A stretch of 64,000 bases of DNA from Escherichia phage WPEC3: the sequence record PV611058, one strand, 5' to 3'. A program made the translations under genes and the position numbers. Below, piece after piece: positions 1 through 64,000 of the stretch (position 1 is its first letter; the number at the start of each line of letters is the position of its first letter). Under the pieces are notes generated by a model. The model searched no databases and was not told where the DNA came from. It saw only the letters and a program-made list of their open reading frames with translations.

Positions 1-152
1 AGGTTACCCGCCCTTTAGCCCCCTACGCATTTTGCCATAGTCCAATCCCTTTTTATTCATAAAAGTCAAGGGATTACCTATGCATTTTTTTAACGCTGAA
101 GTTTAAAAATGTCTTGACTTTTTTATGATTCAGTACTAAATCCTTTTACGCA

Positions 153-362
153 TTAATCCTTCGTTACGCTTACGATTATCTGTGTATCCCCATAGTCCTG
201 CCATACTTCCACGCCAGCCGTCGCCCTGGTTAGTCGTGCTGTCATCTGCTTAATGGTCTTAGGCTTTAGTGGAACCTGTTGCAGTACTGTACGCATAGCA
301 CCATCGACGTTATCATGTACGCCTGCAATAGTGCCTAGAACGTTGTATACTGTATAGATCAT
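153..362 (-). CDS. hypothetical early protein (69 aa)
   Basis: ORF; SD AGGAG about 8 nt upstream of ATG. Confidence 0.55.
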   Translation of the reverse strand: MIYTVYNVLGTIAGVHDNVDGAMRTVLQQVPLKPKTIKQMTARLTRATAGVEVWQDYGDTQIIVSVTKD

Positions 363-430
363 GTGTATGTACTCCTGATATAGTTAAGGCCGCTAGAGAG
401 CGGCCTATGATGTTTGATGATGTGTAACGC

Positions 431-832
431 TTACAACCCTAAGATAGTGCGTGCTTCGTTACGTTCCGTACACAGCTGCATGATGTGAGCAAGTAAGTCC
501 TTGCTAATGTATCCGGTGTTCATAGCTTCACGAATAGATACATCATAAGCACCGAACCCAGTGCGAACGATACGCACATCATTCAGGTTAGTATTATAGA
601 TACCGCCGAGATCAACGGCTTCGAATACTACATCAACAGAATATTCATTGTTGCCATCGTGGAAGTTTTCCAGTGCAATAGTATTGGAAACCGCCCAACG
701 TTTGCAGTTTCCAATGATGCGGCACTGTTCCGGTTGGATAGTGCCATTACTTACAGCGTACTCCAGTGCATCTTTACCAAAAGTCCGAGCCAGTACTAAA
801 ACGTCAGCGAAGGAAGTGATTGAGAAGGTCAT
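431..832 (-). CDS. hypothetical early protein (133 aa)
   Basis: ATG at 832 after SD AAGGAG and PeSL-type promoter/stem-loop; ORF-track extension to 895 is translated promoter. Confidence 0.6.
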   Translation of the reverse strand: MTFSITSFADVLVLARTFGKDALEYAVSNGTIQPEQCRIIGNCKRWAVSNTIALENFHDGNNEYSVDVVFEAVDLGGIYNTNLNDVRIVRTGFGAYDVSIREAMNTGYISKDLLAHIMQLCTERNEARTILGL

Positions 833-921
833 GATAAAACTCCTTAATTTAGGAGGGAGAACCATTTCCCCCTCTCTATGTAAAACATTATACATGAATC
901 TAAGTACTATGCAAGTACTTT

Positions 922-1254
922 TTACATTTTAATACCTGGATTCAGGTAGCGGTGAGATCCATATTCTGGATCGGTTTCGGTCCAGTACTGTAAATCTATA
1001 GTACCTTTAGCGTTAATCTTATCTACCAGCTTATTCATCTTAGCGTATACTACATCAGCATCGATGCGTTTAAAGCCAGTGGCTTTAGTGAAGTAGTAGT
1101 GATTTGCTTCACTATCATTCAGGATGTACCGAGAACCGTTTGCCGTTTGTGCGATAATGATTGAGTATTCTACGTTACGGTCGAGGCCGTCGATGAATAC
1201 AGAGGAAACATTAGTACGGATGAAAGCTTTAACGATAGCGATTGAAGTAGTCAT
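922..1254 (-). CDS. hypothetical early protein (110 aa)
   Basis: ORF; SD AGGAG; TTGACA-N17-GATAAT promoter upstream. Confidence 0.6.
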   Translation of the reverse strand: MTTSIAIVKAFIRTNVSSVFIDGLDRNVEYSIIIAQTANGSRYILNDSEANHYYFTKATGFKRIDADVVYAKMNKLVDKINAKGTIDLQYWTETDPEYGSHRYLNPGIKM

Positions 1255-1500
1255 TTTGAATCTCCTAACTTTGTGGGCCGTCGCACCATTGCCGCCCTAC
1301 GAGATACATTATCGCAGTACTGATATACTTTGTCAATACTTTTTTTATTAATAGTTTTAGTTCCACCAGCAGATAGTTACTCACCGTTATTAACTATATA
1401 TTTTGGATACACCTATGCACCCTGTGGGCTAGTTTTTGTCTATGCGTATATAATAGCAAAGGGACTGACCGGAGTCAATCCCTTTTTTTATTCTTTTTTG

Positions 1501-1701
1501 TTAGATGATTCTCCAATCATCAACGATCATGGTAAGATACCGAACCAGTGATTCGAGTGATTCGTGTTCTCGATAGTCTGCCGCTCCACCAGCGGTACAA
1601 GTACAGCCGATTAAGCCGTTTTGTAGTTCCTGGATCTTTACGTCGATCTGGTTGGCTTTAGCTTCTTTCAGTACTTCAACCAGGGCGATAGCGATAGACA
1701 T
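1501..1701 (-). CDS. hypothetical early protein (66 aa)
   Basis: ORF; PeSL cassette (TTGACA-N17-TATAAT, stem-loop, SD) upstream. Confidence 0.55.
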   Translation of the reverse strand: MSIAIALVEVLKEAKANQIDVKIQELQNGLIGCTCTAGGAADYREHESLESLVRYLTMIVDDWRII

Positions 1702-1791
1702 AATGTTTTACTCCAAACTATTGGCGGGAGAACTATTCCCCCGCTCTATGTAAAACATTATACATTACTGGTTAGTACTGTCAAATAGTTT

Positions 1792-2049
1792 TTATGAAAT
1801 ATCTTCGATGTAGTCGGCCCATTTCATTTTTTCAGTACTGTCAATGGCTACCGGATTATTTGGATCAAACCATTCACCATCACCGCAATACATACCCACG
1901 GCTACGGTTTTATAGCCATCCTGGGCCGTACACCACGACATTGCACGATAGATATGGCCTTTAACTGGTTGCAGTACTGGTAACGTTTTATGGTCTTCTA
2001 CGTAGGCCATAGCTTGAGGATTTACCCGATATTGTGTGAACTGATCCAT
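1792..2049 (-). CDS. hypothetical early protein (85 aa)
   Basis: ORF; TTGACA promoter and purine-rich SD upstream. Confidence 0.55.
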   Translation of the reverse strand: MDQFTQYRVNPQAMAYVEDHKTLPVLQPVKGHIYRAMSWCTAQDGYKTVAVGMYCGDGEWFDPNNPVAIDSTEKMKWADYIEDIS

Positions 2050-2125
2050 TATGTTTCCCCTTGTAGTTAGTAAAGTTATTACATCAGTACTATCAAGCTA
2101 TGTCAATAGTACTGAAATAAAACTT

Positions 2126-2350
2126 TTAGATTAGATTATTGAGGCCGTCAATGGTAGACTCACTTTCTTCTTTCTCCCATTGTCGGTAGTACTTCCATGC
2201 TTCATGATAGGTGGCGATTAGTTCATCTTTTTGATCCTGGTTACATGCCAGTACTGAATCACGGTGAGCGGTGTTATAGATAGAATCGAATGATTTCTTC
2301 TCTTCTGCCAGGTTAGCTACTTCCCGCATCAGTTCATCAAAGTTAGCCAT
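2126..2350 (-). CDS. hypothetical early protein (74 aa)
   Basis: ORF; PeSL cassette with SD AAGGAG. Confidence 0.6.
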   Translation of the reverse strand: MANFDELMREVANLAEEKKSFDSIYNTAHRDSVLACNQDQKDELIATYHEAWKYYRQWEKEESESTIDGLNNLI

Positions 2351-62267: not shown

Positions 62268-62280
62268 ACTACATCTCCAG

Positions 62281-62853
62281 TTATAAATCACGAACGACAT
62301 TCATTAAACACAATTTGGGCTTTATCGCATTCAAAACCCATATGCATTCTTTGTAAGTTGCTATTATAGCATCTAAATGCTCAGTTACAATGCTTTCTTG
62401 AAAATATTCTTCTTCATTGAGCTTTGCTAAATTAGTCACATCACATGTAGGTACTATAGGTCTGGATTGTACACCCATTCCATTATTGATATTGGTAAAA
62501 TGTAAAAAATTGTACTTCACCACACCGTTATCTACACTTATGATACATGTCAAATGTTCCAACTCAGTTAGTTCGGTATTACAAGTGACATGAATGAATC
62601 CAGCATTATAGGCTCTATAATCATCTACTAATATCTCAAAATCATTACGTTTAAATATAAGTGAAATGAGTTTGTCTTGTGGTTTAACCTTCTGAAATTT
62701 TACCGAATTTACGTATGATACTTTAATCTTAGATGAAATTATCTTTTTACTAAGTGCAGTTAATTCTTCTTTAGCCTTAAAAGTTAAAGTTATAGGTCTA
62801 AATCTAGAACTTTTGTTCTTCTTTGATACTTTGAACTTACCTTTTCTATTCAT
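62281..62853 (-). CDS. long paralog P3 (190 aa)
   Basis: basic N-terminus; C-terminal KLNEEEYFQESIVTEHLDAIIATYKECIWVL alignable with 45728-46378 and 24551-25210. Confidence 0.6.
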   Translation of the reverse strand: MNRKGKFKVSKKNKSSRFRPITLTFKAKEELTALSKKIISSKIKVSYVNSVKFQKVKPQDKLISLIFKRNDFEILVDDYRAYNAGFIHVTCNTELTELEHLTCIISVDNGVVKYNFLHFTNINNGMGVQSRPIVPTCDVTNLAKLNEEEYFQESIVTEHLDAIIATYKECIWVLNAIKPKLCLMNVVRDL

Positions 62854-62907
62854 TAATTAAACCCCACATAAAGTAAAAGGGTTGGAATAATACCAACCCT
62901 ATATCTT

Positions 62908-63144
62908 TTATTTTTTAATAGATTCATAAAGCAGAAACAACCAAATAAACATTGATGAACAAACTACTACTGGGATTAATGTAAATTCAGTAAAGAATAA
63001 AAGTATTCCATAAGTTAGTATGCAACATAAGTTTACGTACATAATTGCTTCTGCATTTTTATTTTTCATTTTATATGCAATGAATGTTGGTGACCACATT
63101 ACCAAAAATGCAAACAACGCACATATGATGATTATAGTTTCCAT
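62908..63144 (-). CDS. small membrane protein (78 aa)
   Basis: ORF; hydrophobic; SD GGAGG. Confidence 0.55.
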   Translation of the reverse strand: METIIIICALFAFLVMWSPTFIAYKMKNKNAEAIMYVNLCCILTYGILLFFTEFTLIPVVVCSSMFIWLFLLYESIKK

Positions 63145-63214
63145 ATTACACCTCCGTAAAATAATGTTCTGTACTGCTATTATTTACAGAGAATATCTGA
63201 AAAATTGATCTAGA

Positions 63215-63439
63215 TCAATTTTTAGTCACTTTACAATTTGAATCTTTTTTGTACTGAACAATCACATTGTTCTTAAGGAAGATGATGGTCCCATAGGAAC
63301 CTTGGGCTGCAACTTCAACAATATGGTTCTTATATGTTTCAGTATATCCTTCCATCTCGTTGATACACACTACATGATACTTTGGTTTAGCACATACAAC
63401 AGTACTCAAGAATAGCAGTACTAGTACTAGATATTTCAT
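63215..63439 (-). CDS. hypothetical secreted protein (74 aa)
   Basis: ORF; signal-peptide-like MKYLVLVLLFLSTVVCA. Confidence 0.55.
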   Translation of the reverse strand: MKYLVLVLLFLSTVVCAKPKYHVVCINEMEGYTETYKNHIVEVAAQGSYGTIIFLKNNVIVQYKKDSNCKVTKN

Positions 63440-63489
63440 TTTATTACCTTATAAACAAGAACAGGAATCCTTTTACGGATTCCTATAAT

Positions 63490-63783
63490 TTAGTCCTTTA
63501 ATGTACCATTGTGTAAACGATTATACACATCATTGCGACGCAACTCAACAATATCTTCAGCGTACTTCATTGTAAACGCCCATGCTTTTGGATGCACATT
63601 AAGCTTCATACGAATGCGATTCTTCATCAATTCACCGCTTAGGCGAACAAACTCATGAACACCACGACTTCCGTACTCTGAAATCAAATCATTGATGTAC
63701 ATGTTGCGAAGGGTTTCGTCTGTACATTCTTTAACCATTTCTACGTCTGCCACGATGCTTGCATTTACTGAAGTACTGATCAT
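63490..63783 (-). CDS. hypothetical protein (97 aa)
   Basis: ORF; SD AAGG. Confidence 0.5.
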   Translation of the reverse strand: MISTSVNASIVADVEMVKECTDETLRNMYINDLISEYGSRGVHEFVRLSGELMKNRIRMKLNVHPKAWAFTMKYAEDIVELRRNDVYNRLHNGTLKD

Positions 63784-63794
63784 TTTAAGTTACC

Positions 63795-63968
63795 TTATTT
63801 GAATTGGACTGTAATTTTATCACCTTCAACTACGAACTTACAGTCGTAGCGACGGGCCATATCCATATACATATGCTCAGAATACCACGGAACATCAATA
63901 ACTGGATGCTCTGCGTATTGTAGCACTTCACGGTCACCAACAGTAGTGATGACGAAAGGAATGTTCAT
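63795..63968 (-). CDS. hypothetical protein (57 aa)
   Basis: ATG at 63968 (MNIPFV); upstream region cut by the window edge. Confidence 0.4.
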   Translation of the reverse strand: MNIPFVITTVGDREVLQYAEHPVIDVPWYSEHMYMDMARRYDCKFVVEGDKITVQFK

Positions 63969-64000
63969 CTCTCGCAAAAACAACTCAGCACCTGGTGAAC

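Follow-up and report, generated by a model that had tools for sequence, protein, structure and literature searches.

The palindrome AGTACT is strongly over-represented and under selection across the genomes of one phage clade

Short words that occur far above chance are known from cellular genomes: the Neisseria DNA uptake sequence (DUS), the Haemophilus uptake signal sequence (USS) and Chi are asymmetric and have known readers (ComP, RecBCD), and the known Chi sequences are orientation-dependent. Temperate phages carry dispersed repressor sites (the mycobacteriophage L5 stoperators, which are asymmetric and oriented, and the phiC31 conserved inverted repeats) in tens of copies of 13-17 bp with a known repressor, and T4-type phages carry promoter-early stem-loop (PeSL) cassettes that are not known to be defined by a palindromic word. 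The hexamer AGTACT itself is the ScaI/Eco255I site. It is also the core of the 12-bp palindrome GTGAGTACTCAC, the consensus of the Escherichia coli SlmA site (SBS); 52 SlmA peaks were reported from chromatin immunoprecipitation (ChIP) in E. coli, 50 of which fit the SBS motif (PMC3020112). Here we analysed a stretch of 64,000 nucleotides from Escherichia phage WPEC3 (record PV611058), called the window below, in which a sequence-only reading had pointed out frequent AGTACT copies. We show that the AGTACT hexamer is under selection as double-stranded DNA, genome-wide, in one phage clade. It is a real, strong, clade-defining sequence signal, and it behaves most like the bacterial over-represented 'self' words (DUS/USS, Chi).

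The window holds 291 exact copies of AGTACT, compared with 22.3 +/- 4.7 (maximum 34) in dinucleotide-preserving shuffles, which is 13.4 times the number expected from base composition. Markov models predicted 21.7 copies at order 1, 49.7 at order 2, 112.9 at order 3 and 240.5 at order 4, the last figure being driven mainly by AGTACT's own 5-mers. The sequence-only reading was thus right in claiming over-representation, and its 'well over one hundred' copies, estimated by eye, was too low. The strings that it quoted are all present: TATACAGTACTGATATACTTTGTCAA occurs twice and AAAGTACTATC three times plus once as the reverse complement, and the GCCAGTACT...AGTACTGGC stems and 39-bp direct repeats were likewise found. 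The runner-up among palindromic hexamers reaches only 2.6x. Furthermore, 24 of the 64 palindromic hexamers have no copy in the window, where 2-7 of each would be expected; GGATCC, CTGCAG, CCATGG, GAGCTC, GGTACC, GTCGAC and CTCGAG are among them. These missing words are classic restriction-site avoidance, to which AGTACT is the one large exception.

The excess did not disappear after correction for repeats. In the 55.7 kb without recurring 14-mers, 148 sites remained (2.66/kb versus 0.34/kb expected, about 8x), and the 291 sites lie in 279 distinct +/-6-nt contexts. Cassette duplication or hitch-hiking was therefore rejected as the cause, as the sites share no long flanks and the excess survives masking of the 14-mer repeats. 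Helical or long-range periodicity was also rejected, since the sole preferred distance between sites is that of a 20-22-bp promoter pair.

The nested words rise steadily in the window, from GTAC (3x) through AGTAC (5.7x) and AGTACT (13.4x) to CAGTACTG (97x, 69 copies), and GAGTACTC has no copy. The effective motif is H-AGTACT-D, with CAGTACTG favoured and G shunned at -1. Information in the flanks is restricted to -1 and +1 and is symmetric (at -1, C 45-52%, T about 22% and G 5-8%), and this preference is alike in coding and non-coding DNA and in the early region and the bulk of the genome. Words that differ from AGTACT by one base show no depletion in the window (AGTATT 1.3x, AATACT 1.6x).

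By our own set of open reading frames (ORFs), coding DNA holds 179 sites (3.3/kb) and intergenic DNA 109 (10.7/kb). Counts in the three codon phases were 85, 35 and 60, as against 28.6, 10.7 and 15.5 in synonymous shuffles that keep each protein and the codon usage (about 3x); the maximum total among 300 shuffles was 76. Hence the excess is present in coding DNA, in intergenic DNA and in every codon phase. AGTACT spells 85 of the 163 Ser-Thr dipeptides in the window, and the dipeptides ST and VL, unlike TS and LV, exceed expectation by about 1.5x. Codon or dipeptide preference as the cause was rejected because the excess extends to all three phases and to intergenic DNA; the inflation of ST and VL looks like a consequence, and protein sequence appears to have been shaped by the AGTACT word in the DNA.

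Selection on individual sites was examined by comparing the window with three relatives (TH47, ECO103 and WPEC5) at 92-96% identity. AGTACT was fully conserved at 85.5% of sites against TH47 (other hexamers, 69.6%) and at 94.4% against ECO103 (79.7%), in coding and non-coding DNA. Position by position, the conservation footprint is limited to six bases, all six of which are protected. Substitution within the 6-bp sites was compared with that in flanks within 30 bp, and was 4.40% versus 9.26% for TH47 (p=1e-10), 1.66% versus 4.56% for ECO103 (p=6e-9) and 2.51% versus 3.75% for WPEC5 (p=0.02). Gains and losses of AGTACT relative to TH47 were balanced (27/27). Sites thus change at a rate 2-3x below that of their surroundings and are gained as often as lost, as befits numerous copies that can replace one another and are each under weak selection.

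Such copies, weakly selected and turning over, with a short word far over chance in both coding and non-coding DNA, resemble DUS, USS and Chi, as do inverted pairs that often form terminator stems and a word that is rare in foreign DNA and so marks 'self'. The traits of a signal word were found here, namely an excess that survives composition and repeat controls, purifying selection and lineage-wide conservation. The differences are that AGTACT is perfectly palindromic and belongs to a lytic phage, at about 2.6/kb and with fixed promoter positions.

These data also bear on the possibility that AGTACT has no reader, and that its excess arises as a side effect of biased mutation or repair (conversion of the very-short-patch (VSP) type) or of spreading promoter and terminator cassettes. 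A genome-wide drive would be expected to give the uniform, near-Poisson density, equal in coding and intergenic DNA, that we observed in the bulk of the genome (see below), and the promoter cassettes of the early region are clearly duplicated. However, the one-mismatch neighbours are not depleted, on which ground VSP-type conversion was rejected, and six positions are protected rather than a single mutable base. Known VSP-type effects lie far below an excess of 6-18x. Moreover, the excess stands outside all repeats and in almost as many contexts as there are sites, and promoter registers are shared between genera despite an identity of only 24-57% among their early proteins. We consider this explanation very unlikely.

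By megablast, the window is closest to the 121Q/PBECO4 (Asteriusvirus, 'Rak2-like') Escherichia jumbo phages, with WPEC5 (98%) and ECO103 4-12-1 (99%) as the top matches. The order of genes from window position 1 is that at the start of the WPEC5 record, whose initial and final 21,662 bp are 100% identical and both align to window 1-22503. Accordingly, window position 1 is a physical genome end, and the first ~22 kb are a direct terminal repeat (DTR). DTR lengths of 20.7-22.5 kb have been reported for Sharanji, fEgEco12 and CBB.

In 350 kb of ECO103 4-12-1, a near-identical phage, there are 918 AGTACT copies against 119 expected, with 4-40 sites in every 5-kb bin (1.7 expected). Two layers are seen. 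The first is a uniform one of about 2.2/kb throughout the genome: in the 280-kb bulk, which holds the middle and late genes, density is 2.2 sites/kb whether the DNA is coding or intergenic, with a flat metagene profile and near-Poisson distances between sites (coefficient of variation 1.1). Synonymous shuffling of this bulk gave 162 coding sites, as compared with the 557 observed. The second consists of fixed registers in early promoters and of terminator stems. In the early/DTR block, gene bodies hold 4-5/kb and sharp peaks of 16-22/kb are located 40-80 bp 5' of start codons; away from these early-promoter peaks, the metagene level is flat at 2-3/kb. What the sequence-only reading overlooked is that the word is genome-wide and clade-wide and not peculiar to intergenic cassettes, near-absent in the host and set in fixed early-promoter registers.

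Two stretches of the ECO103 record (OR844650.1), 285378-293664 (8.3 kb) and 296097-301096 (5 kb), have zero AGTACT, where chance would leave gaps of at most about 3.1 kb. Both consist of small paralogues in tandem that adjoin the DTR, just beyond window position 1, and include proteins of about 70 aa with an LGTNYQE motif.

AGTACT is also enriched in other genera: 6.9x in a late-gene region of Klebsiella phage RaK2 and 18x in the early/DTR regions of Cronobacter phage GAP32 and Pectobacterium phage CBB. The genera with AGTACT-rich genomes are Asteriusvirus, Alcyoneusvirus, Mimasvirus and Eneladusvirus. As in the 280-kb bulk of ECO103, all three codon phases stand at about 3x the synonymous-shuffle expectation in RaK2, GAP32 and CBB. 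AGTACT is the top palindrome, at 5-7x, in 17 of 17 IMG/VR relatives with a tail-sheath identity of at least 68%, 121Q and RaK2 included, and is also the top 6-mer in GAP32 and CBB. Neither an AGTACT excess nor a substitute word was found in relatives with a sheath identity of 48% or less, in Pseudomonas phage PA5oct or in T4. A 100-kb sample of E. coli K-12 holds 6 copies (0.06/kb, about 4x under-represented), so that AGTACT is denser in the phage than in the host by a factor of about 40 over the genome and of about 100 within the DTR. The sequence-only reading had regarded the excess as functional, and the DNA-level selection in all phases, the 6-bp footprint and the retention across genera with little DNA identity bear this out against a compositional origin.

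The limits of the clade raise another possibility, that AGTACT is read by a host protein which Enterobacterales share, such as the nucleoid-occlusion factor SlmA, and which the phage exploits, for example for a division block. The AGTACT-rich phages with a known host all infect Enterobacterales, and their Pseudomonas relative PA5oct lacks the excess; the central 6 bp of the SBS are the same word, and both sites are palindromic and dispersed over a genome. T4, however, infects the same host and has no excess. SlmA requires G1, T2, a purine at position 3, A4 and G5 (PMC3020112). These outer bases (G1, T2, R3) are absent or disfavoured at the phage sites: about 70% have a pyrimidine at position 3 (our -1), where G is the rarest base, and the window has no SBS match when up to one mismatch is allowed and only 2 when up to two are. 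On these published base requirements, SlmA was rejected as the reader. The phage also has about 900 AGTACT per 350 kb, compared with 52 SlmA ChIP peaks in E. coli, and SBS are not in promoters, where phage AGTACT is. We know of no other host factor with an AGTACT site, and reading by a host protein is quite improbable.

The placement of AGTACT in early promoters was consistent. A typical DTR unit has a near-consensus sigma70 promoter (TTGACA or TTGCAA, N17, TATAAT) followed by a small minus-strand ORF with a Shine-Dalgarno sequence, and most 5' untranslated regions of these ORFs contain a GC-rich stem-loop. Relative to the -10 hexamer, sites start at -19/-20, as AGTACTgTATAAT (register 1), at -39 to -41, as AGTACTTGCAa or AGTACTaTTGACA (register 2), or, in a minor class, at -29/-30, as TTGACAGTACT (register 3). 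They thus lie directly upstream of, or overlap, the -35 and -10 hexamers, and the peak of pair spacing at 20-22 bp corresponds to the two-site promoter. The registers are identical in three genera (the window, GAP32 and CBB), and at least one site is present in 28/37, 14/32 and 18/31 early promoters, respectively; the identity of 24-57% given above is that of GAP32 and CBB early proteins to those of the window. The features concerned are as follows.
1..22503, unstranded: DTR-equivalent stretch with small minus-strand early genes and sigma70-type promoters; 148 AGTACT sites (6.6/kb)
16394-16426, minus strand: two-site early promoter AGTACTTGCAA-N-AGTACTgTATAAT, with sites at about -39..-34 (16421-16426) and -19..-14 (16401-16406) and TATAAT at 16394-16399
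3287..3312, minus strand: single-site early promoter TTGACAAAGTATATCAGTACTGTATA, quoted in the sequence-only reading, with AGTACT immediately 5' of the -10 hexamer
34434..34452, plus strand: terminator palindrome GCCAGTACTCAGTACTGGC followed by a T-run; like stems at 30897, 35676, 36928, 41885, 45703 and 47588

An extended -10 element was rejected as an account of register 1 because its TG is out of register: the TG of AGTACTgTATAAT is at -14/-13 and directly abuts TATAAT, whereas an extended -10 (TGnTATAAT) needs -15/-14, and the best matches of the promoter scan were scored as 'TG before second hexamer: no'. In the CBB paper, the early promoters were called RpoD-like with an UP-like element. 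The arrangement of early small ORFs, each behind a sigma70-type promoter and a GC-rich stem-loop, with mosaic gene content among relatives, is similar to PeSL cassettes; unlike these, AGTACT extends over the remaining genome, which has no such cassettes. Similarly, many copies of one short site in a genome, promoters and genes included, recall the L5 and phiC31 sites, and as in an operator or stoperator AGTACT overlaps core promoter elements at fixed positions in three genera; it differs in being a 6-8-bp palindrome with about 900 copies in a lytic phage.

The plus-strand terminators of an array of RCC1-repeat genes are GCCAGTACT-n-AGTACTGGC palindromes. Such stems would suit a signal at the RNA level, with self-complementary AGUACU either building hairpins or being cut by an endoribonuclease in the turnover of early transcripts, and the early transcription units are also denser in AGTACT. 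Against this, many sites lie 5' of transcription starts, at -40 and -20, and density in the bulk is unrelated to transcription units. A lone 6-nt duplex is too weak for RNA folding, and no Rfam family was matched in the window, the inner DTR end included. An RNA-level signal is therefore extremely improbable.

A second cassette occurs in 7 copies at 52917-61320 on the minus strand, with an additional copy at 12032, and consists of GGTTGACTTCGGTCAGCC, a T-run and TATAAT. The 5' arm of its hairpin includes the -35 hexamer, so that terminator and promoter overlap; it has no AGTACT.

From the over-representation of AGTACT, the selection on its 6 bp, its restriction to one clade, its promoter registers and its scarcity in the host, we infer a protein of phage origin that reads AGTACT, and an effect of its binding. 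We tentatively favour the reading that a protein specific to this clade recognises AGTACT by sequence, and in this way both marks phage DNA and controls early promoters. AGTACT (best as CAGTACTG, never as GAGTACTC) would be recognised on double-stranded DNA by this protein, probably a dimer, since a perfect palindrome with a symmetric flank preference is most economically the site of a dimeric protein. With about 40-100x fewer sites per kb in the host, an AGTACT-reading factor would be drawn almost wholly to phage DNA. The uniform layer of about 2.2/kb may then be a self-mark that serves, for instance, in coating, protection or recruitment. At the DTR promoters, the same factor could act as an operator-bound regulator, most simply in the shut-off of early transcription: with site centres at -16.5 and at -36.5 to -38.5, a bound protein would overlap contacts of RNA polymerase, which makes control of early promoters the likeliest local role.

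Several points weigh against this reading. No candidate reader was found, and almost every protein of the window is an orphan; when 30 proteins (20 of the window and 10 of the WPEC5 sigma-factor region) were scanned with Pfam and PHROG, no DNA-binding domain was recognised. The site carries information over just 6-8 bp, a short length for a helix-turn-helix dimer and one closer to that of a restriction/modification enzyme. Equal density in coding and intergenic bulk DNA, with near-Poisson spacing, is not expected from a transcription factor alone, and a protein that serves about 900 sites on each genome copy would have to be very abundant. The clade boundary is also the boundary of the host order, so that host- and phage-encoded readers are not distinguishable by it. 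Finally, there are the two site-free islands of ECO103.

Two neighbouring early genes are relevant here.
5440-5694, minus strand: gene with a ParE-like toxin domain (PF24732, E=6e-11)
5756-6160, minus strand: conserved orphan gene 5' of the ParE-like gene, with 2-3 AGTACT sites in its promoter and a paralogue at 19716-19982
The latter was rejected as an autoregulator because its GAP32 and CBB homologues have no promoter sites. Its homologues have no Pfam domain, and its AlphaFold model (pLDDT 75) had no fold match in the PDB.

Type II enzymes typically recognise strict 6-bp palindromes and draw little information from the flanks, and a DNA-modifying enzyme (a methyltransferase or other base modifier) might accordingly act on AGTACT, the modified sites being functional, for example as protection or an epigenetic mark. 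The likeness to ScaI/Eco255I lies in the identical hexamer and in a specificity within about 6 bp, to which the phage sites add a weak -1/+1 preference. DNA methyltransferases are, moreover, encoded by these phages. In the genome of a relative, however, just two were found, a DNMT3-like C5 enzyme and a PF05869 Dam. A motif-based screen of 568 ORFs, which could miss a novel enzyme, gave no AGTACT methyltransferase, nor was the endonuclease of a ScaI-type system found. Phages normally avoid ScaI-type sites, as the window avoids 24 other palindromes, yet AGTACT is enriched, and modification alone leaves the 6-18-fold multiplication of sites unexplained. We also count against it that RaK2 DNA was reported to be CpG-methylated (PMC3622015) and that bulk fEgEco12 DNA was cut normally by ten enzymes, ScaI not among these. 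Modification thus seems unlikely. The sequence-only reading had offered a DNA-binding protein, a nuclease, a modification enzyme or a recombination hotspot; of these, a DNA-binding factor fits best, and the modification enzyme is weakened by the two kinds of methyltransferase found.

The C5 cytosine methyltransferase (286 aa) is encoded at ECO103 43771-44631, beyond the window. Over its full length it aligned best with animal DNMT3A/B/C catalytic domains (E about 3e-23), and less well with M.HaeIII and M.HhaI. Judged by alignment, this apparent DNMT3-like affinity fits the CpG methylation reported for RaK2.

As AGTACT is densest in the terminal repeat (6.6/kb), a signal for DNA ends or recombination was also considered: a Chi-like attenuator of a nuclease, or a nicking or cutting site of the phage that aids terminal-repeat recombination or replication. 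Weak selection spread over the genome is like that of Chi, and Chi GCTGGTGG itself is concentrated in the DTR on one strand, with 10 of the 11 minus-strand copies of the window (0.2 expected; 3 on the plus strand) in 1-22 kb. Unlike the asymmetric, oriented Chi sequences, AGTACT is palindromic; RecBCD of E. coli reads GCTGGTGG, which the phage already carries; and the fixed promoter registers would go unexplained, with no nuclease tied to AGTACT. The chance that this explanation holds is small. The minus-strand Chi copies in the DTR are at 1363, 1586, 3165, 5065, 7411, 8659, 9609, 10119, 14938 and 21899, in the orientation recognised by RecBCD entering at the left end of the window.

The densest AGTACT cluster is formed by tTCAGTACTGAAt at the inner DTR end.
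20800..22800, unstranded: inner DTR end, ORF-poor, repeat-rich and non-coding; 22 AGTACT sites in 2 kb, mostly tTCAGTACTGAAt
20878-20916 and 20931-20969, unstranded: two 39-bp direct repeats with two AGTACT sites in each (GGAGTACTATTATTCAGTACTGAATCAA)
21589-21687, within the ORF-poor 20800-22800: 8-bp tandem array of about 12 copies of TAGCCGTC
The 8-bp array is accompanied by several sigma70-like promoters and hairpins. This ORF-poor end may be a packaging, terminus or origin region.

Beyond these elements, the window contains the following genes and arrays.
9258-9515, minus strand: DksA/TraR-type zinc-finger protein of 85 aa (PF01258, E=2e-9), among the DTR early genes
22806..27208, minus strand: paralogues of 60-77 aa in a tandem array, together with one gene of 219 aa, with AGTACT sites located within coding sequence
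27293..47580, plus strand: array of RCC1-repeat paralogues of about 380 aa each, in which many spacers have a terminator with an AGTACT stem and then a TATAGTATAAT promoter
51316-52866, minus strand: repeat protein of 516 aa with about six 70-aa repeats (...YDYSKV.Y...TKVCIIDP.YGEFWQ.P..H..G.G...) and a C-terminal domain
From its domain match, the DksA/TraR-type protein could be a modulator of host RNA polymerase. The RCC1-repeat array comprises about 16 tandem paralogues, mostly of 360-450 aa, which are annotated 'regulator of chromosome condensation' in related records. The 516-aa protein matches the PHROG 681 and 559 'endonuclease' families and has no Pfam match.

A second word accompanies AGTACT in the opposite sense. 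GCGC has no copy in the window (69 expected) or in the 350 kb of ECO103 (296 expected), and is likewise at 0 in all AGTACT-rich relatives sampled (RaK2, GAP32, CBB and four more). It is normal in PA5oct, two further outgroup genomes and T4, so that the clade boundary of its absence is that of the AGTACT excess. This absence suggests exposure to a GCGC-specific nuclease, possibly one encoded by the phage. The two words contrast sharply between phage and host: AGTACT stands at 2.6-6.6/kb versus 0.06/kb, and GCGC at 0 in 350 kb versus 7/kb (7.15/kb in E. coli). It is conceivable, though doubtful, that unmodified phage DNA is told from host DNA by a two-word code, in which AGTACT would recruit or retain a phage factor and GCGC would be where a nuclease, possibly encoded by the phage, attacks and destroys the chromosome of the host. 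Neither the AGTACT excess nor the GCGC absence in these phages was mentioned in the literature searched, which did not extend to the GAP32 genome paper.

Phages purge palindromes, 24 of them here, and yet about 900 copies of this one are selected across several genera, which points to an undiscovered sequence-reading activity central to the largest coliphages. A 6-8-bp probe (in the forms TTCAGTACTGAA and CAGTACTG, with GAGTACTC as the control) provides a handle for fishing out the reader, and a regulatory logic is predicted for the early promoters of the terminal repeat. ScaI-type restriction in a host should kill these therapeutic candidate phages unless their sites are protected. Together, the AGTACT excess and the total absence of GCGC may be a way for a phage to distinguish its own DNA from that of the host without base modification.

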